Below, piece by piece: positions 9,206 through 47,696 of a stretch of 64,000 nt of DNA (within the stretch, counting starts at the first letter, position 1; each line of letters starts with the position of its first letter). Made by a program: the position numbers and the translations under genes. The notes beneath the pieces are model-generated. The model saw only the letters and a program-made list of their open reading frames with translations. It was not told the origin of the DNA and searched no databases. This DNA is from Deltaproteobacteria bacterium (GTDB taxonomy: Bacteria > Desulfobacterota > GWC2-55-46), in contig JACRCE010000011.1 of the NCBI GenBank assembly GCA_016213015.1, positions 10,586-74,585 of the forward strand, given 5' to 3'.

Positions 9206-11485
9206 TTACTTAATCCCTTTGAGCGTAAGCCTTGCCTCCTCCGCGCCCTTATGCTTGTCGTTGAGCTTCAATGACCGCGTCAATTCTTCCTTTGCAAGAC
9301 GCATGTCGCCCTTCTTGAAGTAGGCCATGCCGAGGTGATAGCGGATCATGGCGTCGTCAGGCTGTTTTTCGGCGGCCTCTTTGATGTGCGTAACGGCCTT
9401 CAGGTACGTCTGCTTTTTATAGTATATCCAGCCTAACGTATCCGATATTCCCGCGTTGTCAGGGAGTTCTCCCTTTGCGGTTTCGGCAAGCGAGAGCGCC
9501 ACGTCGATATTGCCGTTGCCTTCGGCGTACAGCCACGCAAGGTTATTAGCCGCAGGCGCGAACTTAGGGTTTATCTCCAGCGCCTTCTTGTAATTCTTAA
9601 TAGCCTCGTCCGTCTTGCCTTGCTTTTCATATATGAGTCCGAGAAGCATGTACGGAGGCAGATGATCCGGCCTCTTGACGGACGCCTCGGCGTAGTGCTT
9701 CGCGGCCTTGTCGAGATCGCCTTTCTGGGCGTAGACGTTGCCGAGGTCTATATAGGCGTCTATGAAGTCGGCCTTTGTTTCAATCGCCTTCAAGAGCGCA
9801 TCCTCGGCGCTCTTGAAGTCCTTCAGGTACAGGTACGTCCTCGCAAGGATATGCTGGAAGACGGGATTTTTGGGCGAGACGGCGATCTGCGCCTTTATCC
9901 TCTCGACGGCCTTGTTGTTTTCCTTGTTGGACAGGTGTATCGCCGCTATCATGCCGAGCACGTCGGCGATATCGGGGTTGAGGGAAAGCGCCTTTTCAAA
10001 CTGCTCAAGCGATGCCCTGTTGTTCTTTTGCAATTGATACAACAGACCGAGTTTTGCGTACCCCCTCGGGTCCTTCGGCATAGCGACGATGAATTTTTCA
10101 AAATGCCCGCGCGCCTCAGCGGTCTTCGACTGTTTAAGGAGGATGTCTCCCGCAAGGAGGTTTGCGGCCGGATTCCCCGGATTTTTTGCCAGCACCTTCC
10201 CTGCCTCTTCCAGCGCCAATTTATAATCCCCTGACGCCGCGTGGATGGATGCAATGGCCAGGCGAGCGCCGGAGGCGGCCGGGTTCAACTTCAACGCCTC
10301 GGCATACTCCGACTTTGCGGCCTGACTATTTCCAACCGCCTGATACGCGGCGCCAAGGAAGTAGTGAGACTCGGCGGCGCGCGGCTCTTCCTTGATGGAA
10401 GCGCTCAGGTTTTCGGCCGCCTCCTTCGGCTTGTTGGCCGTAAGGAGCAGCCTGCCGTTAAGGTAGAGCGCATAAGCGTCCTTGGGGTGTTTCTTTAAGA
10501 TGGCGGCTATGCGCTCCTCCGCCTCCTTTGTTTTGTTCAACTCAAGGAACAGATTGGCAAGACTTTTCTCGATTGGCAGCGTCTCGGATGCCTTTTCCAA
10601 TCCCTTTTTAAGGGTCGCTTCCGCGTCCGACACCCTGTTGGTCGCCGCATAGAACTCGGAGAGCATCAGGTACGCGGCCGGGGCGGCCGGCTTGAGTTCG
10701 ATTAAAGAGAGGAAGGTCTTGTCGGCATCGGTCATTTTCCGCACCGCTATGTAAAAATTGGCAAGGGCCGCGAGCGCGTCCGGATTTTTCGGGTTCATCT
10801 CAACGGCCTTTTTCATCTCCGCTTCGGCCTCGGTCTTGTTGCCGCTGCTGAGGTACAGATTCGCAAGCGCAAGACGCGGCTCGATGGCATCGGGCTTGAC
10901 GCCGAGCGCCTTCCTATAATGCTTCTTGGCCGACTCGACATCCTTGCCGGCAAGATAAATGGCCGCGGCGGCCATATAGTGCGTAGGTTCGGTGGGGCCT
11001 GACTTGAGAATATCCTCTATCATCGATATGGCTTCCCGCGTCTTACCCTTACCGGCTAAGGCCGAAGCAAATAAAACCTTGCCTTCGACGTTCTCCTTTT
11101 CCTTATTAACGACAAGTTCGGCCTTTTCCTTCGCCTTATCATACTCCTGCGACAACAGATATAGTTGACCGATCTTGAGTTGCGCGTCAATCAGGCCGGG
11201 ATTTAAGTCAACCGCCGTTGAAAACTCGCGGAAGGCAAGTTGAAGGTTCGTGACGTTGCCGAGCTTCAGGTACGCAAGCCCGAGCTTATAGTGAGCCTCG
11301 GCGCTTTTCGGGTTTATCTGCACGGCATTCTTGAACTCTATGGCCGCTTCCCTATATTGAGACTGGGCGATGTACTCATCCCCTTTTTTAATGTGGCCTG
11401 CAAGTTTTTTCTCGGGGCTTGCACCGCAAGCAACGACAAAAAACGTTATACACACTATAACAAGTATATTTTTGAGAACTGTCAT
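9206..11485 (-). CDS. TPR-repeat lipoprotein (PEP-CTERM-system PrsT-like?)
   Basis: This is a ~760-aa protein built of consecutive TPR units. It starts MTVLKNILVIVCITFFVVACG, which is a signal peptide plus lipobox. The ATG at 11485 is preceded by GGAGGAG. It is adjacent to tRNA-Glu and a PEP-CTERM gene. Confidence 0.75.
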   Translation of the reverse strand: MTVLKNILVIVCITFFVVACGASPEKKLAGHIKKGDEYIAQSQYREAAIEFKNAVQINPKSAEAHYKLGLAYLKLGNVTNLQLAFREFSTAVDLNPGLIDAQLKIGQLYLLSQEYDKAKEKAELVVNKEKENVEGKVLFASALAGKGKTREAISMIEDILKSGPTEPTHYMAAAAIYLAGKDVESAKKHYRKALGVKPDAIEPRLALANLYLSSGNKTEAEAEMKKAVEMNPKNPDALAALANFYIAVRKMTDADKTFLSLIELKPAAPAAYLMLSEFYAATNRVSDAEATLKKGLEKASETLPIEKSLANLFLELNKTKEAEERIAAILKKHPKDAYALYLNGRLLLTANKPKEAAENLSASIKEEPRAAESHYFLGAAYQAVGNSQAAKSEYAEALKLNPAASGARLAIASIHAASGDYKLALEEAGKVLAKNPGNPAANLLAGDILLKQSKTAEARGHFEKFIVAMPKDPRGYAKLGLLYQLQKNNRASLEQFEKALSLNPDIADVLGMIAAIHLSNKENNKAVERIKAQIAVSPKNPVFQHILARTYLYLKDFKSAEDALLKAIETKADFIDAYIDLGNVYAQKGDLDKAAKHYAEASVKRPDHLPPYMLLGLIYEKQGKTDEAIKNYKKALEINPKFAPAANNLAWLYAEGNGNIDVALSLAETAKGELPDNAGISDTLGWIYYKKQTYLKAVTHIKEAAEKQPDDAMIRYHLGMAYFKKGDMRLAKEELTRSLKLNDKHKGAEEARLTLKGIK

Positions 11486-11711
11486 GAACTCCTCCACGCG
11501 CTCGTCGTTTTCATCAATAATCAGACAATTTTTGATTATATTGAAGCTATGCAGGCATGTCAATCAATTAAAAGATGGTTAGTCTGAATGGGTTTAGGCT
11601 GAAGGCTGAAAAGACCGATCACCGTGAGTTGCCTCGCCTTCGGCTGCGGCAACTCCCCCGGTCGACCCTTCGGGTTCTCATCCCTTGCATTTCGGAAGAT
11701 TCTATCTTTCT

Positions 11712-25904: not shown

Positions 25905-27608
25905 ATGGCTAATATACTTTTTGAACCCGGTTCCCCATCTTTCATGGATCTCATTGGAAACGGCAAGATACACGTCGTTCCCAGATACCAGAGGGATTAT
26001 TCGTGGAATTATGAAGAATGGGATGATCTATGGAATGACATTGAAGGCATTAAAACCGAAAAGATACATTATATGGGTTACGTGGTTTTGCAAAAAACAG
26101 ATGACCCGCTGAAATTTTTGGTTATAGACGGCCAACAAAGAATAACCACGTTAAGCATTCTGGCGCTTGGCGTTATCAAGGTATTGGAAGACTGGGTCGA
26201 GCAAGGCGTGGACGCGGCCAACAACAAAAGAAGGATTGCAATTCTTTCGGATAAATTTATCGGATTTACTCCAGCCGCGTCTCTCATGCCTGTAAGCAAG
26301 TTACACCTTAACCGCAACAATGACGGCTTTTATAAAAGTTATTTGATACGGCGGCGCAAACCAACGGCGATTGGAAAGTTGAAGCCGTCGGAAAAAAAGA
26401 TGTGGAGGGCATTCGAGTTCTTTTGCGATAAATTGAAAAAAAGATTCGATGACGATAAGGACGGGGCAACGCTTTCGGACTTTCTGGAAACGACCATTTC
26501 AATGAATCTTGTCTTTACCTCTATTACGGTAGGAAATGATCTGAATGCCTATAAAGTATTTGAGACTCTGAATGCAAGGGGCGTCAAACTTTCAACAGGA
26601 GACCTGATTAAAAACTATCTGTTTGCCGAGGTGGCAAAAACAAGCGAGCATGATCTGGATGAAGCGGAAAGACAATGGCAAAGGATAAACGACATCCTGC
26701 AACAGATCGAACTGCCTGTATTTTTAAGGCACTATTGGAATTCAGCTCATACATTGGAACGAAAAAATACCCTTTACAAAGCCCTGAATAGCGAAGTAAG
26801 AGGCGCCGCCGCCGTATTTAATCTACTTGGGGACATGGATAAGCTGGCTCTTGTTTATACGGCACTTGACAAACCATCCGATACCTTATGGAGCAAGGAA
26901 CAAGCCGTCCTTATAGAAGAACTGTCTTTAGTCAGTAGAACACAGCCTTTTCCTTTATTGCTGGCCGCTTACAAGCATATAAAGCCGTTAGATGAGGCGG
27001 AATTTACCAAGATAATAAGGGATTTAGTTGTCGTGTCTTTTCGTTATAATACCGTCAGCGGATTGAATCCCAATACACAGGAAGAAGCATATAACAAAAC
27101 GGCTATTGGTATCAGTAAGGGAACGTATAAAACCGCGCGCGACGTGTTTAACGGTTACACAAAGGAATTATATGTGGCTGATGAGAAATTTGAAAACGAC
27201 TTTACCTACATGACAATGAACACCACGCGCAATAAAACACTGGCAAGGTATCTTTTATGCAAAATGGAAAGACAACTCTCCGCCATACCGGTTGATTGGA
27301 ACGACAGTAAAGTTACCATTGAACATATACTTCCTGAAAATCCCAATTCCGAATGGGAAAAATGGTTCGACGCTGAACAACAGAATGAAAGCATCTACCG
27401 TATAGGCAACCTTACCTTGCTGGAAACAGGCAAAAACAAAGATTGCGGAAATAAGCTTTTTGCCGAAAAAAAAGACATCTATGCGACAAGTCAATACCTG
27501 CTTACCAAAAACAAAACATGCTTTAACGAATGGAAGCCTGAAGTCTTATTAAGAAGACAGCAAGGGATGGCCTCTCTTGCTAAAACCGTTTGGAAGGTTC
27601 AGTATTAA
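25905..27608 (+). CDS. DUF262/DUF1524 protein (GmrSD-like type IV restriction / ParB-like NTPase + His-Me-finger nuclease)
   Basis: The N-terminal motifs are VPRYQRDYSW and IDGQQRITT. The C-terminal motif is TIEHILPEN...RIGNLTLLETGKN. GC content is markedly lower (~40-45 %) than the ~60 % of flanking genes. Confidence 0.75.
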   Translation: MANILFEPGSPSFMDLIGNGKIHVVPRYQRDYSWNYEEWDDLWNDIEGIKTEKIHYMGYVVLQKTDDPLKFLVIDGQQRITTLSILALGVIKVLEDWVEQGVDAANNKRRIAILSDKFIGFTPAASLMPVSKLHLNRNNDGFYKSYLIRRRKPTAIGKLKPSEKKMWRAFEFFCDKLKKRFDDDKDGATLSDFLETTISMNLVFTSITVGNDLNAYKVFETLNARGVKLSTGDLIKNYLFAEVAKTSEHDLDEAERQWQRINDILQQIELPVFLRHYWNSAHTLERKNTLYKALNSEVRGAAAVFNLLGDMDKLALVYTALDKPSDTLWSKEQAVLIEELSLVSRTQPFPLLLAAYKHIKPLDEAEFTKIIRDLVVVSFRYNTVSGLNPNTQEEAYNKTAIGISKGTYKTARDVFNGYTKELYVADEKFENDFTYMTMNTTRNKTLARYLLCKMERQLSAIPVDWNDSKVTIEHILPENPNSEWEKWFDAEQQNESIYRIGNLTLLETGKNKDCGNKLFAEKKDIYATSQYLLTKNKTCFNEWKPEVLLRRQQGMASLAKTVWKVQY

Positions 27609-27635: not shown

Positions 27636-28397
27636 ATGTCCATCAAACCCAAGGCGGCCTTTTTCTCGTTCACCTGTTGCGAGGGGTGCCAGCTCATGAT
27701 ACTGAGCTGCGAGAAGGAACTGCCGTCCATACTCGAACATATCGAGATAGTCAACTTCCGCGAGGCCATGACCGAACGGAGCGAGGACTATCAGGCGGCC
27801 TTCATCGAAGGCTCCGTCAGCAAACGTGAAGAAATCAAAAAACTCAAAAAGATACGTGAAAAGGCAAAGGTGGTGGTTGCCCTTGGCGCGTGCTCCGCAA
27901 TTGGCGGACTTAATTGCCTTAAAAACCGCTTCCAGATGGACTATCTAAGGAAAGAGGTCTACGGGCAGGACGGCCTGAAGTTCAAGGCCTTTGAAACCAT
28001 ACCGGCAAGGCCCATTGACTCGATAATCCATGTCGACTACTATATACACGGCTGTCCCATACCCAAAAAAGAGTTCCTGTCCGTCCTGACCTCCCTGCTC
28101 ATGGGAAGCGTCCCACGCATCGTGAACCACCCGGTTTGCGTAGACTGCAAGATAGCGGGAAATATCTGCGTGTTCGAGAAGGGCTTAACCTGCCTCGGCC
28201 CGATAACAAGGGCCGGATGCGACGCGGTCTGTATTACTTACGGATGCGTATGCTGGGGATGCAGGGGGCCGGTCGACGACCCGAACACCGCGGCGCATAA
28301 GGAAACGCTTCTAAGACACGGCCTTTCAGCCGATGACGTATCGCTCGCTTTGAGTCTTTACGGCGCTCACAAAACAAAGACTACCTCTAAAAATTAG
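27636..28397 (+). CDS. [NiFe]-hydrogenase small subunit, group-3 (MvhG/VhuG-like)
   Basis: The ORF has the N-terminal FSFTCCEGCQ motif and distal [4Fe-4S] Cys clusters (CVDCK...C, CxxGCxxxC...CWGCRGP). The TAG stop at 28395-28397 lies within the terminus of repeat B2. Confidence 0.85.
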   Translation: MSIKPKAAFFSFTCCEGCQLMILSCEKELPSILEHIEIVNFREAMTERSEDYQAAFIEGSVSKREEIKKLKKIREKAKVVVALGACSAIGGLNCLKNRFQMDYLRKEVYGQDGLKFKAFETIPARPIDSIIHVDYYIHGCPIPKKEFLSVLTSLLMGSVPRIVNHPVCVDCKIAGNICVFEKGLTCLGPITRAGCDAVCITYGCVCWGCRGPVDDPNTAAHKETLLRHGLSADDVSLALSLYGAHKTKTTSKN

Positions 28398-28654
28398 GGA
28401 AGCTCTGATTAATTCGCCAATCCGTCATTCTCGCTCCGCGAAGCAATCTCGTCTTCAAGGAAATCAATAAGTTACGAGATTGCCGCGCCGCAAAAGCGCG
28501 GCTCGCAATGACAAATAAGAATTAATCAGAGCTTCCTTAGATAGTTTTCCCGAGGTCAAGGAAGGGCGAAAATAAAAAGCGTAGCATATATGCAATATGT
28601 GAGCATTTTTATTTTAGCCATGACGCAGAGATCGGGAAAAATAGCAATTTTTAA
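28385..28654. mobile_element. family-B MITE-like element copy B2 carrying a nested family-A MITE
   Basis: The B TIRs are cctctaaaaattag ... gggaaaaatagcaatttttaa. The interior is homologous to B1 (agcatatatgcaatatgtgagcatttttattttagccatgac). Confidence 0.6.
28398..28536 (+). mobile_element. MITE family A, copy A1 (139 bp)
   Basis: It has perfect 17-bp TIRs GGAAGCTCTGATTAATT / AATTAATCAGAGCTTCC and is flanked by a 4-bp direct duplication TTAG (28394-28397 and 28537-28540). Confidence 0.8.
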
Positions 28655-29944
28655 ATGAAAAAAGACCTCCACATAAAGATAGATGAAATAACCCGCGTCG
28701 AGGGACACGGCAACGTGGTCATTGACGTAAAGAAGGGCGTGGTTAAGGATGTCGCTCTTGAGATAATCGAGTCCCCCCGGTTTTTCGAGATGATGTTAAG
28801 GGGCAGAAGATACGACGAGGCACACCACATCATGTCGCGCATCTGCGGCATCTGCGCGGTGAGCCATACGTCGGCCTCTCTCAAGGCCATAGAGTCGGCA
28901 ATGGGCATTCGCATCTCAAGGCAGGCGACGCTATTGAGGAAACTCGCCTTTGCGGGCGAGATGCTTCAGAGCCATATACTGCATCTGTACTTTCTCGTAT
29001 TCCCTGACTTTTTAGGCGAAGGCTCGATAGTGCCGATATTGAAGACCCATCCTGAGATAGCAAGGAAGGGTCTTGAACTCAAGAGGCTCGCCAACGAGAT
29101 ATGCGCCGTCGTGGCCGGCAGGCACATCCACCCGATATCGCTCGCCCCCGGAGGCGTGGCGCATCTGCCGACCGCTCAGGAACTTAAAAAACTCCGCTCC
29201 AGCCTCGATGCCTCCTTTGACGACCTTGAGTTCACTTATGACCTGCTCTCAAAGGTTCACGTGCCGGAGTTCGAGAAAAGGCGCGACTTCGTGTCGCTGA
29301 AGTCGCGGGGAGAGTACGGCGCTTACGCCGGAGAGCCGGCATCAAGCGAGGGCTACGCCATTACGGCCAAGACCTACACGAAAAAGATTCGGGAGTACAC
29401 GGTTGCCCACTCCGCGGCAAAGCAGGCAAGAAGTCCGAAGGGCGCCTTCATGGTAGGCGCCCTCGCAAGGGTCAACAACAACTGGAAAAGGCTCTCACAG
29501 CGCTCGCGCGCTATAGCCGAGAAGGCCGGATTGAGGCCGCCATGCTTCAATCCGTTTCACAACAACACGGCCCAACTCGTGGAATGTTTTCAGATGACCG
29601 GGGACGCGATACGGATGATAGACGCCCTGCTTGAGGCCGGATTGAAGCCGGAGCCGTTGAAAAAACCCAAGGGATGGGGCATCGGCATAGGCATCGTCGA
29701 GGCCCCGCGAGGGACGCTCTACCACGAATACCGGATAAACAGGGACGGCTTTGTCGAGGCCGCGGAGTGCGTCATACCCACGGCGCAGAATCTAAGGGCT
29801 ATCGAAGAAGACCTCCGCGCCTTCGTGCCGCTCATAATGGATAAGCCGAAAGAGGAGATACGGCGTATAGTGGAGACGCTCGTAAGGGCCTATGACCCGT
29901 GCATATCGTGTTCGACGCATATAATGGACGTAAGATTCGTTTAG
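28655..29944 (+). CDS. [NiFe]-hydrogenase large subunit, group-3
   Basis: The ORF has the N-terminal RICGICAVSH motif and the C-terminal DPCISCSTH motif, followed by a short IMDVRFV tail. The first Cys is Cys and not Sec, so this is NiFe, not NiFeSe. The ATG directly abuts the end of MITE B2 and no SD is visible. Confidence 0.9.
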   Translation: MKKDLHIKIDEITRVEGHGNVVIDVKKGVVKDVALEIIESPRFFEMMLRGRRYDEAHHIMSRICGICAVSHTSASLKAIESAMGIRISRQATLLRKLAFAGEMLQSHILHLYFLVFPDFLGEGSIVPILKTHPEIARKGLELKRLANEICAVVAGRHIHPISLAPGGVAHLPTAQELKKLRSSLDASFDDLEFTYDLLSKVHVPEFEKRRDFVSLKSRGEYGAYAGEPASSEGYAITAKTYTKKIREYTVAHSAAKQARSPKGAFMVGALARVNNNWKRLSQRSRAIAEKAGLRPPCFNPFHNNTAQLVECFQMTGDAIRMIDALLEAGLKPEPLKKPKGWGIGIGIVEAPRGTLYHEYRINRDGFVEAAECVIPTAQNLRAIEEDLRAFVPLIMDKPKEEIRRIVETLVRAYDPCISCSTHIMDVRFV

Positions 29945-40353: not shown

Positions 40354-40759
40354 CCCCGCTGAAAAGGGCGATGTCAACAAGGCCGGAGCCGCAAAAACGG
40401 CAAGCGGTTTTGCGCGCATGGCGATTTGGGGCGGCGCAATAGCCGCAGTTGCAGGCTTGCTGCTCAGCAACCGGCCTACAACGGGTTTTGCGGTCGGATG
40501 GATGATAGCCGCCGTCAACATGTCATGGCTTTTAAGGATTGCAAGGCGTTGCCTTGAGCTAACCCCGGAAAAAGCGGCGAGGTCGGGCGCGCGTACCTAT
40601 TACCTGAGATTCGCGGCAACGGCGCTTGTGTTCACTATAGTCGTATCAAGGAAGCTCATAGATCCTGTGCCGCTTCTGGCCGGGTTTAGCGGTTCGTTGT
40701 TTCTTATCATCGGCATTATGATCGCGGTTGCAAGGGAGGAGTTCAGACAAGATGCATGA
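40343..40759 (+). CDS. atpI: ATP synthase protein I
   Basis: It is a 138-aa multi-TM protein in the canonical position before atpB. It overlaps atpZ and atpB. Confidence 0.6.
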   Translation: MSHNPAEKGDVNKAGAAKTASGFARMAIWGGAIAAVAGLLLSNRPTTGFAVGWMIAAVNMSWLLRIARRCLELTPEKAARSGARTYYLRFAATALVFTIVVSRKLIDPVPLLAGFSGSLFLIIGIMIAVAREEFRQDA

Positions 40760-41408
40760 GATAATACTGCCGACTTTCGGGCTGTACGCGCACACGGCGA
40801 TGATGATCTACATAATCATCGGCCTTGCGATATTTTCAATCCTCCTTACAAAAAGGCTTGCCCTCGTGCCGGGACAGACTCAATCGCTCATAGAGCTTGT
40901 GATCAGCGCCTTCGCAGGCATGGTGGACGAGAACATGGGGCACAAGGGAAGAAAATACTTTCCGCTTGTCATGACCCTTGCGGTCTTGATATTCGCGTCG
41001 AACGTCATGGGACTCATACCGGGTTTCTTGCCGCCGACCGCCAATCTCAACGCTACCGCCGGGCTCGCCCTTGTAGTGTTCTTCGCAACCCATATAATAG
41101 GCTTCAAGGAGCATGGCGTTAAATACCTCAAACACTTCGTCGGGCCTGTCTGGTGGATGTTCCCGATCATGATACCTATAGAGATAATCGGCCATCTGGC
41201 AAGGCCGCTCTCATTGTCACTCCGTCTGTTCGGCAACATGATGGGCCATGAGCAGATAGTCATGGTGCTCCTGATACTCATGCCTGTAGCCTATCCGCTT
41301 CTTGCCATATCAACGGTGATGGGTGTGCTCGTCGTATTTCTGCAGACGTTCATCTTCTCGCTCCTTACCATGCTGTACATCGCCAGCGCGCTCGAAGAGG
41401 CGCACTGA
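40752..41408 (+). CDS. atpB: F0F1 ATP synthase subunit a
   Basis: The ORF has the LSLSLRLFGNMMGHE essential Arg-helix motif, with the ATG at 40752. No atpE follows. Confidence 0.9.
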   Translation: MHEIILPTFGLYAHTAMMIYIIIGLAIFSILLTKRLALVPGQTQSLIELVISAFAGMVDENMGHKGRKYFPLVMTLAVLIFASNVMGLIPGFLPPTANLNATAGLALVVFFATHIIGFKEHGVKYLKHFVGPVWWMFPIMIPIEIIGHLARPLSLSLRLFGNMMGHEQIVMVLLILMPVAYPLLAISTVMGVLVVFLQTFIFSLLTMLYIASALEEAH

Positions 41409-41703: not shown

Positions 41704-42345
41704 ATGAAAAAGTTTATTCTGTCCTGCGTATTCGCCATCGGGCTGGTTTTTTGTGGCTCAAAGGCTCAGGCAGCGCCTGTCTCATGGATTGACTGGTCTA
41801 CCACCTCATCCGGCACGCTGACAATCGGGTCAACAACCTCTGGCGTTTCCTTAACAGGTCCTGCAGGCAGCCTTGTTAACGGCAACTACTACTACAGTTC
41901 CTTCCCCGCCACATACAACGGATTGGCCCCATCTGATCTAATTCAAATTTGGGGCACAGGCATCTTTAATCTGACATTCAGCAGCCCTGTTCTCGACCCT
42001 TACATTGCGCTGGTCAGCGTTGGGCAAGGCGGCCTTCCGGTTACATACAGCTTTAACAATCCGTTCTCCGTCATATCGTCAGGCCCGAACTTCTGGGGAT
42101 ATGGGGGCTACTCAGTGAGCGGGAATAACTTTACAGGGTATGAGTACAACGGCGTACTGCAATTCACCGGGGCATATAGTTCCATATCCTTCAGCGTCAA
42201 CCAACCGGAGTATTGGCACGGCTTCAACTTCGGCGCTTCCAGCTTGGCGCAAACGGCCGCCGTGCCCGAACCTTCCACGCTTCTCCTTCTCGGCACTGGC
42301 CTTGTCGGACTTGCGATAAGAAAAAGGTTTAAGACAAAAGGTTAA
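41704..42345 (+). CDS. PEP-CTERM sorting-domain secreted protein
   Basis: The ORF has a signal peptide, a Ser/Gly/Thr-rich body, and the C-terminus VPEPSTLLLLGTGLVGLAIRKRFKTKG. The ATG is preceded by GGAGGAG. Confidence 0.8.
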   Translation: MKKFILSCVFAIGLVFCGSKAQAAPVSWIDWSTTSSGTLTIGSTTSGVSLTGPAGSLVNGNYYYSSFPATYNGLAPSDLIQIWGTGIFNLTFSSPVLDPYIALVSVGQGGLPVTYSFNNPFSVISSGPNFWGYGGYSVSGNNFTGYEYNGVLQFTGAYSSISFSVNQPEYWHGFNFGASSLAQTAAVPEPSTLLLLGTGLVGLAIRKRFKTKG

Positions 42346-44597: not shown

Positions 44598-45062
44598 ATG
44601 ATAATTATAAAATTTCTTCATCTCCTCAGCCTTTCGATATGGGTCGGCTCAATGGTATTTTTCAGCTTCCTTGCGGCTCCGGCCATATTCAAGAAACTGC
44701 CGAGGGAAACGGCTGGCGACGTGGTAGGCGAGATATTTCCGAAGTACTGGCTCCTCGGTTATACAGCTTGCGTAACCGCCGTCCTTACGCTCGTAATAAT
44801 GTCGGTTGAGGGAGGTTCAATTCCGACGGCACGAATGACGGTCATCGCGGCTATGACGCTCATTGTCTTTTGTAACGGCCTTGTCGTGGCGACAAAGGCA
44901 AGAAGGATAAAGGCCGAAATAAGAGTTGCCGGGCAACAGGATGAAAAGGACGGGCTCAAGGCACGGTTCAAAAGACTTCACGCCGTGAGCGCAGTCCTTA
45001 ACATGGCAAGCCTTATCCTCGGTACCGCCTTGATATTCCTTACCACAATGGAACTACGCTGA
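44598..45062 (+). CDS. DUF4149-like integral membrane protein
   Basis: The 154-aa ORF has four TM helices and begins FLHLLSLSIWVGSMVFFSF. Confidence 0.5.
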   Translation: MIIIKFLHLLSLSIWVGSMVFFSFLAAPAIFKKLPRETAGDVVGEIFPKYWLLGYTACVTAVLTLVIMSVEGGSIPTARMTVIAAMTLIVFCNGLVVATKARRIKAEIRVAGQQDEKDGLKARFKRLHAVSAVLNMASLILGTALIFLTTMELR

Positions 45063-45189
45063 TGACTTTAACATCGCCATCCGGTAAAACCGCGCCTGAT
45101 AAGCATATCTCAACGATATTGCAAAATCTTGAAGATGATTTCATCCCTTTTCATCTATCTCTCCTTACTTACCTTGTAAATCAGGTCGC

Positions 45190-45217
45190 CTTGACAATCT
45201 CCCTCCAACTGTTATAA
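45190..45217 (+). promoter_or_regulatory. near-consensus sigma70 promoter TTGACA-N16-TATAAT
   Basis: The sequence is cTTGACAatctccctccaactgtTATAATat. It sits about 215 nt upstream of the OMP gene, implying a long 5' UTR that contains a GGCGAA/TTCGCC hairpin. Confidence 0.5.
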
Positions 45218-45434
45218 TATAACTATTAGCACCGCTTGACATGAGGCATAACCATGCTAAGATTAAACGGTTTCATCGTGTTCATGTCTTTTTTTCCATT
45301 GGCCATCGGTTTTTTGATCTATTGCATCTGGTCAGGCGAAAGCCGCGATTCGCCGGAAAGAGGCAACCTCGACGCAAGCGCTCAAGCATCATGAAAACCA
45401 TCCAACGGCTCAATACCTAAACAAAGGAGGTTTT

Positions 45435-46727
45435 ATGCTACGGAGCATGTCGATTGCACTCGCAACAATCTTTCTGGCGATAACGGCCGTATTCTACGTC
45501 TCGCAAGACAGCCTTGCGGCCCCGACGTTCGCAAGACAAACGGGCATGGCCTGCAACACCTGCCACTTTCAGCACTTCCCGACCCTGAACGCCTTTGGCA
45601 GGGCATTCAAATCAGGCGGCTACACCATGGCAGGGGGACAGAGCCTTCTGGAGGGGGATCTCCTTTCCATGCCGTCGAGCCTCAACGCCTCTCTTGTAAC
45701 GAAGATACGGTATCAGAAAAGAAACGGCGACAGCGGCAACGCCGGCGCCTCTACGTCCAATCAGGAGATGAACAAAGGCACGTTGCAGTTCCCTGACGAG
45801 GCCGCGCTTCTTATCGGCGGACGCGCAGGGGAACATATCGGCTTTTTGCTTGAGGCTTCATTGAAGGACTCGGCCACGACCGGGACGACCATGTTCACGT
45901 CTTACAAGATGCCGGTGGTATTCGACGCGGCAGGGACGAAGTTGAGCGTGATACCGTTCACCACGGACGCGGCAGGGCCGTCTTACGGCTTTGAGATATT
46001 GAACACCGGCGCGGTAAGGATGCTTCGTCCTCTTGAACACCGCAATGACACGTCGGCGCAACAGTACGTCGGCACCGACGGCGCGGCAACCGGCTTTGCA
46101 TTCGTTGCCGCTCATAACCTCGTGCATGCCAACTACACGGCATGGTACCCGGCGCACGGGGACTCGGACGCGGGGCCGTACATGGGTTATTTCAGGGCCG
46201 CAATAACCCCGACGATCGCGGGCTGGGACATTGCCGCAGGCACTCAAGTTTGGCGCGGAAGCTCCAAATCAGGCGGAGAGACTGCGCCGACGCGCGTGGC
46301 GGGCAGGGCATTCGCGCTTGACGCACAGGCGCAGGGCACTGCGGGAAAATTGCCATTGGGAGCGTATCTCACCTACACACGCGCCCCTAAATCAAAACCC
46401 ACGTGCACGACCTGTACCGACTCCAACACTAATATGTATAATACGAGCCTTAACAAAACAAAATCCGCATGGACCGCAACGGCCGAGGCCGGCGTCATCC
46501 CGAACAGGGTTACGCTTGCGGCAAGCTACAGGAACGGCAAGGATGGGGACCCTGACGGAGACAACAAGGACGGGGACAACGCAAAGATGCTTGGCGCGGT
46601 CTATACGATCGCGCAGAATCTACAACTTCAACTAAATAACTCTTGGTTCTCTGGAAGCGCAAAAACAGGCAGCATGAGGGCTAACGGCAATATGCTTACC
46701 ACTGTGATGCTGTTCGGCGCGTTTTAG
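45435..46727 (+). CDS. outer-membrane beta-barrel protein with an N-terminal CxxCH motif
   Basis: The ORF has a signal peptide, then ARQTGMACNTCHFQHFP (a single CXXCH), then alternating amphipathic beta-strand-like segments. The C-terminal residue is Phe (...VMLFGAF), typical of OMPs. RBS AAGGAGG is upstream. Confidence 0.6.
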   Translation: MLRSMSIALATIFLAITAVFYVSQDSLAAPTFARQTGMACNTCHFQHFPTLNAFGRAFKSGGYTMAGGQSLLEGDLLSMPSSLNASLVTKIRYQKRNGDSGNAGASTSNQEMNKGTLQFPDEAALLIGGRAGEHIGFLLEASLKDSATTGTTMFTSYKMPVVFDAAGTKLSVIPFTTDAAGPSYGFEILNTGAVRMLRPLEHRNDTSAQQYVGTDGAATGFAFVAAHNLVHANYTAWYPAHGDSDAGPYMGYFRAAITPTIAGWDIAAGTQVWRGSSKSGGETAPTRVAGRAFALDAQAQGTAGKLPLGAYLTYTRAPKSKPTCTTCTDSNTNMYNTSLNKTKSAWTATAEAGVIPNRVTLAASYRNGKDGDPDGDNKDGDNAKMLGAVYTIAQNLQLQLNNSWFSGSAKTGSMRANGNMLTTVMLFGAF

Positions 46728-46746
46728 TCGGCTTCCATTCGTCGTC

Positions 46747-46783
46747 AAAAGGGGAGGGCTGATAAAACCCTCCCCTTTTTATT
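46747..46783 (+). terminator. rho-independent terminator
   Basis: The hairpin is aaaaGGGGAGGGctgataaaaCCCTCCCCttttt. Confidence 0.8.
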
Positions 46784-46793
46784 GGAATAAGGG

Positions 46794-47696
46794 GTGCTGA
46801 TGAACAACACGCAACCACAGCGCAACAGGACAGGCGCGGCCTATCCAACTATTTTTTCTCTTTTTCTTCTGCTCTCGGCCTGCGCCGCCCCGCTTGAGAT
46901 CAACACGCGCATCGATAAAGCCTCCCTTCATGACAAGGCGCTGGTCAGCGCACCGGTTACAGTGTACATCCAACCGTTCATTGACAACCGCGACCAATCG
47001 AAAAGTCCATTCAAAGACCCGCGCACCATCGGACGGGTGAACGTGCCGATCTCGGACATGATCGGCGACTCCTTGACACTTTCAGAGGACATACCGGTAA
47101 TAGTAACAAGCGCGTTTGCAAACGGACTAATCGCCGCCGGTTATGCGATAGCCCAAGAGGAGAAGGACGCGGACTTCATGATCTCAGGCACGGTTGAGGA
47201 GTTTTCGCTTAACCTCGACGCAAGGGATGCGTTGAACATCGGCCTGTCGGGACGGATCGTCGAGAGGGAAACCAACAGGGTGATATGGGCGGGTGTCGAA
47301 ACGGAAAAGACGGACAGATACGCTGGAGTGATGGGCAACTCAAGGGCAACGATAACCAAGTACATCGCCTCGTCGCTGTACAAGCTGGTCAACAACGTGC
47401 TTGTCAAGGCCACCCCAATGATTGAAAACACCCGCGCCGTCTACCGGCCGAACATTGACAAAGAAAACACAGCGATACCGGCCTCCACGGGCAGGGCCGT
47501 CGTGCTTGCCGAGCCGGTGCGTTCAAAGGTCTATATAAACGACGTCTACTACGGCCTCACCCCGCTGAAATTGGACATCGCTCCGGGCGTATACGAGATT
47601 ACCGTAAAACACAGAGGCTTTAAGGACGCAATGGAAAATATCTCGGTCAGACAAGGGCAGATTACCGAGATGGAGGTTGTATTGGAAAAGGAGTAG
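46794..47696 (+). CDS. PEGA-domain lipoprotein
   Basis: The ORF has a signal peptide plus lipobox (LLLSAC). The C-terminal ~70 aa is VYINDVYYGLTPLKLDIAPGVYEITVKHRGF, a PEGA-like beta-sandwich. Confidence 0.55.
   Translation: MLMNNTQPQRNRTGAAYPTIFSLFLLLSACAAPLEINTRIDKASLHDKALVSAPVTVYIQPFIDNRDQSKSPFKDPRTIGRVNVPISDMIGDSLTLSEDIPVIVTSAFANGLIAAGYAIAQEEKDADFMISGTVEEFSLNLDARDALNIGLSGRIVERETNRVIWAGVETEKTDRYAGVMGNSRATITKYIASSLYKLVNNVLVKATPMIENTRAVYRPNIDKENTAIPASTGRAVVLAEPVRSKVYINDVYYGLTPLKLDIAPGVYEITVKHRGFKDAMENISVRQGQITEMEVVLEKE

Follow-up and report, generated by a model that had tools for sequence, protein, structure and literature searches.

The gene at 45435-46727 of the 64,000-nt stretch analysed here (the window), which belongs to the MAG of an uncultured groundwater Deltaproteobacteria/Thermodesulfobacteriota member, raises the question whether a 430-aa protein with one haem-binding motif and an outer-membrane (OM) barrel can carry electrons across the OM on a single polypeptide, and if so, which electrons. 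The gene and its product have the following features.

45435-46727, plus strand: gene for a probable Cyc2-family fused monohaem cytochrome-porin of 430 aa, C-terminal end ...LFGAF
45435-45518 (about residues 1-28), plus strand: signal peptide, MLRS, the hydrophobic stretch IALATIFLAITAVFYV, then S-L-A|A-P
45516-45542, plus strand: A28-x-P-x-F-A-R-Q-T36 motif, here A28-A-P30-T-F32-A33-R34-Q35-T36
45552-45566, plus strand: putative haem site C40-N-T-C43-H44, the sole CXXCH of the protein
45579-45587, plus strand: P49-T-L51 (PxL), with four residues (F-Q-H-F) between H44 and P49
45678-46724 (residues ~82-430), plus strand: 16-strand barrel in the AlphaFold2 model, pLDDT mostly 75-93

An earlier note on this DNA had described an OM barrel protein with a single N-terminal CXXCH and a C-terminal Phe, and the ORF, the motif and the AlphaFold2 model bore this out. 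It had also suggested that a monohaem c-type cytochrome fused to an OM barrel would be a compact porin-cytochrome conduit. This plan matches a described family, Cyc2, which is used by iron-oxidising bacteria for electron uptake from iron outside the cell (PMC8406198). Keffer et al. 2021 (PMC8406198) recognise a Cyc2 sequence by its signal peptide, one CXXCH only, AXPXFAR[Q/K][T/Y] upstream and PXL downstream of it, a length of at least 365 aa and a 16-strand OprO/OprP-like barrel, and every one of these features was found in the 430-aa protein. The product is probably a Cyc2 family member, combining a short N-terminal c-type haem domain with a 16-stranded OprO/OprP-like OM barrel in one polypeptide, and would most probably take electrons from Fe(II). 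Pfam and NCBIfam assigned the protein to no family (no porin model, Porin_O_P included, at E<=1), and because these databases fail to recognise it, the protein and its homologues stay labelled "hypothetical". In the PDB no sequence match was found, whether the query was the protein or a 35-sequence profile.

The signal peptide was read from the sequence, and AlphaFold2 places a helix at residues 2-21. Signal-peptidase cleavage is probable at S-L-A28|A29-P, since this position aligns with EASA|VPAFARQ of homologues. The alignment gives a mature N-terminus of APTFARQTG... instead of the ARQTG... assumed previously, which was a minor slip. According to PMC8406198, the motif AXPXFAR[Q/K][T/Y] ahead of CXXCH occurs in Cyc2 alone. 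Five residues (Q-T-G-M-A) lie between R34 and C40, and no other CXXCH was found in ORFs of at least 90 aa across the 64-kb window. C40, C43, H44, P49 and the flanking FARQTG motif residues were invariant among 35 homologues, and the haem-module residues were kept in all N-terminally complete representatives of the best 150 of 3,418 clusters. Across the wider family the spacing from haem site to Pro is about 1 residue longer or shorter; P49 lies 5 residues past His44, and in Ralstonia-type homologues the Pro lies 4 past.

The barrel predicted earlier was recovered by AlphaFold2, as 16 strands, with a smaller size: it measures ~350 aa, not ~400, because the modelled strands cover residues ~82-430. 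Residues 21-80 of the model have a pLDDT below 50, and haem geometry and plug position are unreliable there.

Across 385 aa the 430-aa protein showed 41% identity with a protein of Ca. Thiodiazotropha (E 2e-92). A published tree puts lucinid-symbiont Cyc2 orthologues in the neutrophilic Cluster 1-equivalent set, in a gammaproteobacterial group that is sister to a deltaproteobacterial one (PMC12442345). Because of this identity and this placement, with the tree of the lucinid-symbiont Cyc2 as the link, the protein is likely a member of Cluster 1 (Clusters 1-3 as in McAllister 2020 and Keffer 2021). The hosts of the nearest homologues were mainly Thermodesulfobacteriota, Nitrospirota and sulfur-oxidising Beta-, Gamma- and Campylobacterota, most of them not known iron oxidisers. 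In the Cyc2 literature function is considered uncertain outside verified clades (PMC8406198) and unproven in lucinid symbionts (PMC12442345). Ten distant cluster representatives were labelled only "hypothetical" or Nitrospinae. Using tblastn against plasmids, Cyc2-like genes of Ralstonia, Methylocystis and Caballeronia were found, alignable in the N-terminal module only.

The family is tied to electron transfer by the genes that adjoin it in relatives. Dihaem and monohaem cytochromes c are encoded 3' of the cyc2-like gene in loci L068, L075, L077, L079 and L086, and in L036 a complete Alternative Complex III (ACIII) operon lies ~1 kb downstream of it. Within the 64-kb window itself neither cytochrome c maturation genes (ccm/ccs) nor a second c-type cytochrome nor a WWD-motif protein was found. 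A WWD-motif search of loci L001-L085 gave a single match, a 167-aa monohaem cytochrome c-like ORF (L039), which is not a maturation protein. A TPR_CcmH_CycH match at 9206-11563 was rejected as a maturation gene, being a generic 785-aa TPR protein.

The regions on both sides of the gene contain the following features.

45191-45218, plus strand: sigma-70 consensus promoter, -35 TTGACA at 45191-45196, 16-nt spacer, TG at 45210-45211 (extended -10), -10 TATAAT at 45213-45218
45225-45434, plus strand: 5' untranslated leader of ~210 nt, its start placed from the -10 hexamer, with Shine-Dalgarno AAGGAGG at 45424-45430
45335-45340 and 45349-45354, plus strand: GGCGAA/TTCGCC inverted repeat, 6-bp stem and 8-nt loop
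46747-46783, plus strand: intrinsic terminator-like hairpin between the cyc2-like and lipoprotein genes, AGGGGAGGG, a 9-nt loop and CCCTCCCCT, followed by TTTTTATT
46794-47696, plus strand: lipoprotein gene, lipobox LLSA-C30 with Ala at +2, N-terminal alpha/beta domain, helix 184-217, PEGA domain 233-296

The promoter scored 12/12 and was the sole perfect site in the 64 kb, with 0 such sites in 100 shuffles. Of the 80 genome loci, 17 have an identical perfect promoter ahead of the orthologous gene, as do loci L081-L083, L088 and L089, with diverged flanking sequence. The TTGACA-N16-TATAAT promoter noted previously is thus real, being a 12/12 site that recurs in diverged genomes, and only its coordinates had to be moved by one base, from 45190-45217 to 45191-45218. 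The ATG of the ORF lies 4 nt past the AAGGAGG. The terminator hairpin has a folding energy of -17.6 kcal/mol and gave a weak sub-threshold Rfam match only; a similar hairpin with T-run (at or below -10 kcal/mol) was found at the same intergenic site in 28 of 46 loci. Consensus promoter, consensus Shine-Dalgarno and strong terminator are also present in related genomes. Because of the perfect extended -10 promoter, the consensus Shine-Dalgarno and the strong terminator, very high expression is predicted for the gene, which would form an autonomous unit. This prediction agrees with the reported expression of Cluster 1 cyc2, which is often the top-expressed gene of iron oxidisers (PMC7029218). 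Upstream, a DUF4149 gene (44598-45062) was syntenic in the nearest relatives only; with its synteny confined in this way, it was set aside as a part of the system.

Downstream, the lipoprotein gene probably starts at the ATG at 46800. The N-terminal alpha/beta domain of its product is of the LptE/PelC/PqiC/CsgG type, and its PEGA domain was recognised by Pfam (PF08308, 50.2 bits versus a cut-off of 20.8, residues 236-299) and modelled by AlphaFold2 as a beta-sandwich at 233-296. The only sequence family found was PEGA, plus PF03923 in two homologues; a sequence-level match placing it in the LptE, PelC or PqiC (DUF330) families was not found. The lipoprotein gene lies 3' of the cyc2-like gene in 52 of 79 loci. 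Among the relevant papers of the literature searched, none was found that mentions this lipoprotein (LptE/PelC-like plus PEGA) and Cyc2 together. We propose that the conserved downstream lipoprotein is an OM accessory of the barrel. Going further, it is possible, and suggested here tentatively, that it is a dedicated OM subunit in a large Cyc2 subfamily, where it might cap or plug the periplasmic mouth, aid assembly or dock electron carriers; the pair would then be an undescribed two-component 'Cyc2 plus lipoprotein' conduit.

If the Cyc2 reading is right, the precursor would leave the cytoplasm by the Sec route and lose its signal peptide near A28|A29. A cytochrome c maturation system would link haem covalently to both cysteines, C40 and C43, and H44 would be its proximal ligand. 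The barrel would be inserted by means of its C-terminal Phe signal, with the haem segment at or within its opening on the periplasmic side. From outside, a small redox-active solute would come into the pore, Fe(II) being the most probable one, and would give one electron to the haem. From there the electron would pass to periplasmic carriers, candidates for which are the c4-type dihaem cytochromes whose genes adjoin the cyc2-like gene in beta- and gammaproteobacterial relatives and the ACIII operon that lies nearby in Thermodesulfobacteriota relatives.

It could be asked whether the same haem-porin plan has another job in this host, in which electrons would run outward, with Fe(III), humics or a partner cell as their acceptor, or another small reductant, e.g. 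a reduced sulfur species, would be oxidised. Such a job would fit anaerobic or facultative groundwater Thermodesulfobacteriota, and the nearest homologues occur mainly in Thermodesulfobacteriota, Nitrospirota and sulfur oxidisers and not in classical iron oxidisers. The literature likewise notes that the distribution of Cyc2 overlaps that of sulfur oxidisers and that Cyc2 may have further functions (PMC8406198, PMC12442345), and the NiFe-hydrogenase pair encoded in the 64-kb window offers other electron donors. However, Fe(II) is oxidised by every Cyc2 protein that has been tested biochemically, one from each cluster (PMC8406198), a narrow 16-strand pore with only one haem fits a substrate that is small and soluble, and the gene context gave no pointer specific to sulfur chemistry or metal reduction, so that we regard a different job as unlikely. 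It is highly improbable that the protein is an ordinary OprO/OprP-type substrate-specific porin in which the cysteines form a disulfide or a metal site and bind no haem. The closest structural match was indeed the phosphate porin OprP, at 11% identity and with only the fold in common; a few database records call homologues OprO/OprP porins or bear PF13609, and the lack of maturation genes in the window would also agree with a porin. Against this, His44 next to C43, the Cys spacing and the FARQTG and PxL residues around them do not vary in thousands of sequences, a pattern to be expected for haem c and not for a disulfide, and haem c has been shown in homologous Cyc2 proteins (PMC8406198). With an N-terminal haem module present, no Pfam or NCBIfam porin model matching and the fold alone in common, the protein does not belong by sequence to the OprO/OprP porins.

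A further rival concerns the leader, for which a long structured 5' UTR with a GGCGAA/TTCGCC hairpin and post-transcriptional control had been suggested. Of this, the inverted repeat and the length remain: with the promoter at 45191-45218 the leader measures ~210-216 nt. The structure and the control found no support. Rfam was searched with region 44900-46900 in E-value mode and gave three weak matches (E 1.4-8.5), all outside the leader, which thus matched nothing even at E<=10; the minimum free energy of the leader did not differ from that of shuffled sequence (z = 0.03), and no covariation was seen in the hairpin in a four-way alignment of the closest relatives. The hairpin was sequence-identical in two close relatives, and in the third (L001) 2 of the 6 pairs are lost with no compensatory change. 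A 59-aa leader ORF (45241-45420) was dismissed as a leader peptide, since in the three closest relatives stops interrupt every frame. Two observations could still speak for a cis-regulatory RNA (a riboswitch, a thermosensor or a target of sRNA) through which translation or mRNA stability would be controlled: related loci as a rule have a leader of some length past the conserved promoter, ranging from ~62 to 334 nt, and several leader blocks, the 3' arm GATTCGCC included, are conserved among the four closest relatives. In enterobacteria the long 5' UTRs of mRNAs for abundant OM proteins (e.g. ompA) are elements of mRNA stability and sRNA targets. Since neither the length nor the sequence of the leader is conserved past the nearest relatives, and no leader peptide is conserved, we consider such an RNA quite improbable.

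Cyc2 is the main marker gene for spotting iron-oxidising bacteria in metagenomes. The family is already known; the lipoprotein has so far not been connected to Cyc2. Judged from the genomes compared, our analysis shows a well-conserved Cyc2 subfamily that is widespread in groundwater Thermodesulfobacteriota and Nitrospirota, seems built for very high expression and usually comes with the lipoprotein. If the lipoprotein is a real subunit, models of Cyc2 assembly and of periplasmic electron handover need an extra component. If the hosts oxidise Fe(II), subsurface iron cycling includes lineages that are not counted as iron oxidisers.

Among the known systems, Cyc2PV-1 of Mariprofundus ferrooxydans, Cyc2 of Acidithiobacillus ferrooxidans and Cyt572 of Leptospirillum have the same signal peptide, single CXXCH, AxPxFAR[Q/K][T/Y], PxL, size, 16-strand OprO/OprP-like barrel and C-terminal aromatic residue as the protein described here, and the strong expression signals of its gene are consistent with known Cyc2. 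Unlike the hosts of these three, the present one has no known iron oxidation. In the rus operon cyc1 comes after cyc2, and likewise a c4-type dihaem cytochrome gene comes after the cyc2-like gene in proteobacterial relatives, whereas in the window there is no adjacent cyc1-like gene and its place is taken by the gene for the LptE/PelC-like lipoprotein with PEGA domain. The Cyc2 of Ca. Thiodiazotropha (PMC12442345) has the N-terminal motifs of the window protein; there, a dihaem cytochrome c4 is encoded 3' of the gene, and the LptE/PelC-like PEGA lipoprotein is absent, with a weak PEGA/SHOCT protein on the opposite strand. The Cyc2-like plasmid proteins of Ralstonia and Methylocystis (FARQTG..C..CH-T-x-[FY]-P-E-L-T) share the haem module and the overall plan, with 446-553 aa and a terminal Phe, and three c-type cytochrome genes come after the Methylocystis gene. 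Their identity to the window protein is ~31% and limited to the first 115-130 residues, the barrels being unalignable, and the distance from haem site to Pro is one residue shorter.

MtrAB, MtoAB and PioAB likewise bring electrons across the OM through a haem-housing barrel, but they do so with a separate periplasmic decahaem protein in a barrel of ~26 strands, where the window protein has one polypeptide, one haem motif and 16 strands. No multihaem gene was found in the 64-kb window, and the locus is not of the MtrAB/MtoAB/PioAB type. For the lipoprotein and a Cyc2-type barrel, the proposed model is that of LptD-LptE and PelB-PelC, in which LptE serves LptD and PelC serves PelB. Compared with LptE, PelC and the PqiC/DUF330 lipoproteins, the putative partner described here has a long helix in addition and, at its C-terminus, a PEGA domain.

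The ORF of 430 aa on the forward strand, designated here the cyc2-like gene, has exactly the coordinates assigned to it in the earlier note. The gene and the elements around it are as follows.

45191-45218, + strand, promoter TTGACA-N16-TATAAT with a TG upstream of the -10 (extended -10)
45335-45354, + strand, GGCGAA/TTCGCC repeat, read from the sequence
45424-45430, + strand, Shine-Dalgarno AAGGAGG, with the ATG 4 nt further on, read from the sequence
45435..46727, + strand, cyc2-like ORF, 430 aa, ending in ...LFGAF, read from the sequence
46747-46783, + strand, terminator-like hairpin GGGGAGGG/CCCTCCCC plus T-run between the cyc2-like and lipoprotein genes, -17.6 kcal/mol
46794-47696, + strand, partner lipoprotein: LptE/PelC/PqiC-like N-domain, then a long helix, then a PEGA domain at the C-terminus

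Sequence searches of Pfam, NCBIfam and the PDB with the window protein, profile included, gave no matches. More than 1,000 homologues were found, and the one with 100% identity is annotated as "hypothetical protein" in a groundwater Deltaproteobacteria MAG. Searched exhaustively with HMMER, 1.84 billion cluster representatives gave 3,418 matching clusters at E 1e-3 or better, 791 at 1e-10 or better and 271 at 1e-30 or better. Among the best 150 of the 3,418 clusters, xPxFARQxG...CxxCH was kept by all representatives with an intact N-terminus; 35 aligned homologues were invariant at A28, P30, F32, R34, Q35, T36, G37, C40, C43, H44 and P49. The window protein has one CXXCH (C40-H44), and no second one was present in the other ORFs of at least 90 aa across the 64-kb window. 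Judged from the homologue alignment (EASA|VPAFARQ), signal-peptide cleavage probably follows A28. The mature protein would then start with APTFARQTG..., slightly further upstream than the note proposed.

Cyc2 is the fused monohaem cytochrome-porin of iron-oxidising bacteria. It is recognised by a signal peptide, a single CXXCH, AXPXFAR[Q/K][T/Y] upstream of this CXXCH (claimed to be unique to Cyc2), PXL downstream, a length of at least 365 residues and a 16-strand barrel with a structure like OprO/OprP (PDB 4RJW, 2O4V) (Keffer et al. 2021, PMC8406198). The window protein matches this published signature in motifs and predicted fold, and therefore the "compact porin-cytochrome conduit" first suggested for it was a correct reading, of a family already described. 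The window protein adds a new and so far unannotated member to the Cyc2 family and is a real feature of a known kind. What goes beyond published descriptions is limited to the lipoprotein partner, the promoter and the terminator, all of them conserved.

Identity to the plasmid-borne Cyc2-like genes of Ralstonia and Methylocystis was ~31% over 115-130 residues and confined to the N-terminal module; the barrels of these proteins could not be aligned with the window protein. Proteins of Ca. Thiodiazotropha were 46-48% identical to that of L078 (a Thiohalomonas subfamily member used as query), and one of them was 41% identical to the window protein over 385 residues (E 2e-92). Cyc2 orthologues of these same lucinid symbionts are present in a 2025 phylogeny, in a narrow data set equated with Cluster 1, as sister to deltaproteobacterial sequences (PMC12442345). 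Because of this identity and this placement, the window protein is probably, by way of the literature, a Cluster 1 sensu lato Cyc2.

The consensus promoter is the only perfect TTGACA-N16-TATAAT site in the window, as against none in 100 shuffles, bearing out the earlier note. The same perfect promoter was found directly upstream of the orthologue in 17 of 80 genome loci and in 5 further loci from close relatives, with diverged flanking sequence. Across ~1.2 Mb of loci, 21 of the 27 perfect sites were upstream of the orthologous gene. The AAGGAGG Shine-Dalgarno was conserved likewise. In 28 of 46 loci the corresponding intergenic site holds a hairpin plus T-run comparable to the terminator, often with the same G-rich stem. 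This implies that the cyc2-like and lipoprotein genes differ in expression level. Together, the perfect promoter, conserved Shine-Dalgarno and strong terminator make the cyc2-like gene look like a self-contained, very highly expressed unit; the lipoprotein gene looks to be expressed by read-through or on its own. In the closest relatives, a second perfect site on the opposite strand, ~40-180 nt upstream of the cyc2-like promoter, forms a divergent promoter pair (L001 3242-3269 (-), L081 2637-2664 (-), L082 357-384 (-)); this second site is absent from the window.

The long structured 5' UTR also proposed for this gene was not borne out. The suggested Rfam search of the leader gave no match even at E<=10, and the predicted folding energy was no different from that of shuffles (z 0.03). 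In the comparison of the four closest relatives, two keep the GGCGAA/TTCGCC hairpin by identity and a third has lost 2 of its 6 pairs without compensatory change. Subfamily leaders measure between about 62 and 334 nt, and no frame of a 59-aa leader ORF was conserved. Nothing found speaks for a structured regulatory element; the leader could conceivably affect mRNA stability or be targeted by an sRNA. Within the first ~40 nt after the -10, L002, L006, L011, L012 and L014 carry a Shine-Dalgarno-like AAGGAGGTGAC(C), near the predicted leader 5' end and well away from the start codon. This motif, which could stabilise the mRNA, is absent from the window's leader.

A homologue of the partner gene was found near the cyc2-like gene in 52 of 79 loci, nearly always just downstream. 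Of the 63 loci that extend at least 1.3 kb downstream, 44 have it (2 more were missed by overlap). Reciprocally, two independently chosen partner homologues each directly followed a 414- or 422-aa gene carrying the AVPAFARQTG..C..CHFQHFP.L signature. The lipobox (LLSAC30, Ala at +2) predicts an outer-membrane lipoprotein by the enterobacterial rule. PEGA was present in 58 of the 59 detectable homologues, the exception being a 171-aa fragment, and PF03923 in 2; a DRYAGVMGNSR block was invariant. The lipoprotein scored 15.8 against XCC0632/DUF330, 12.4 against PqiC, about 11 against PelC, 11.1 against CsgG and 9.5-10.4 against LptE. LptE, PelC and CsgG, well-studied members of this fold, function at or in outer-membrane barrels. 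By analogy, a putative physical partnership of lipoprotein and barrel is a reasonable hypothesis. No relevant literature linking a PEGA lipoprotein with Cyc2 was found in the library searched, and two papers on cyc2 in Gallionellaceae make no mention of such a neighbour gene. L043, L046 and L062 each have a tandem duplication, two adjacent cyc2-like ORFs preceding the lipoprotein gene.

Scanning one genome per species yielded 330 genomic stretches encoding a relative. Hosts among the best 80 were groundwater "Deltaproteobacteria"/Thermodesulfobacteriota, Nitrospirae, Sulfurimonas, a Helicobacteraceae MAG, Hydrogenophilales, Rhodocyclales-type Betaproteobacteria and sulfur-oxidising Gammaproteobacteria; most of these are not known to oxidise iron. 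Clustering the ORFs of the best loci revealed dihaem c4-type cytochrome genes between the cyc2-like and lipoprotein genes in betaproteobacterial L068, L075, L077 and L079, with an additional monohaem cytochrome c gene in L075 and L079; L074 has the monohaem gene alone. In Thiodiazotropha the dihaem c4 gene is directly 3' of the cyc2-like gene. A complete Alternative Complex III operon (pentahaem c7-like ActA, molybdopterin and FeS ActB, NrfD-type ActC, ActD, monohaem ActE, ActF) lies convergently ~1 kb downstream of the pair in L036 (13372-20674 (-), Thermodesulfobacteriota). ActE/ActF-like genes recur just downstream in L039, L040, L042, L043 and L046 (Thermodesulfobacteriota), and L042 has the whole ORF set. 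The family is therefore embedded in periplasmic and membrane electron-transfer contexts; the window has no such neighbours.

Other neighbours were also recorded. An atpE-like gene separates the pair from the Alternative Complex III operon in L036 and is just downstream of the pair in Thermodesulfobacteriota relatives; in the window, genes for an ATP synthase A-chain (40728-41408 (+)) and a PEP-CTERM-anchored protein (41704-42345 (+)) lie a few kb upstream instead. The upstream DUF4149 membrane protein gene (44598-45062 (+)) keeps its place in L081 and L083, but this synteny does not extend to the subfamily at large. At 27636-29944 (+) and 25905-27608 (+), the window also holds paired genes for the small (Oxidored_q6) and large (NiFeSe_Hases) subunits of a NiFe-hydrogenase, with a GmrSD-type restriction endonuclease gene in front of them. 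Phage-type integrase genes immediately upstream of the pair in two unrelated metagenome contigs (L088 1139-2227, L090 1472-2167) hint that it moves as a mobile module.

The best-supported model for the window protein is that of Cyc2. The precursor would be exported by Sec, haem would be attached covalently to C40/C43 with H44 as ligand, and the barrel would then be inserted. A small solute, most probably Fe(II), would be oxidised by one electron inside or at the pore, and the electron handed to periplasmic cytochromes. The 64-kb window contains no cytochrome c maturation genes and no other cytochromes, and published work warns explicitly that iron oxidation should not be taken for granted in unverified Cyc2 homologues (PMC8406198, PMC12442345). 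The order of cyc2-like and c4-type genes in the relatives recalls cyc2-cyc1 in the Acidithiobacillus rus operon. Reports that Cluster 1 cyc2 often outranks all other genes of iron oxidisers in expression (PMC7029218) fit the high expression predicted for the window gene.
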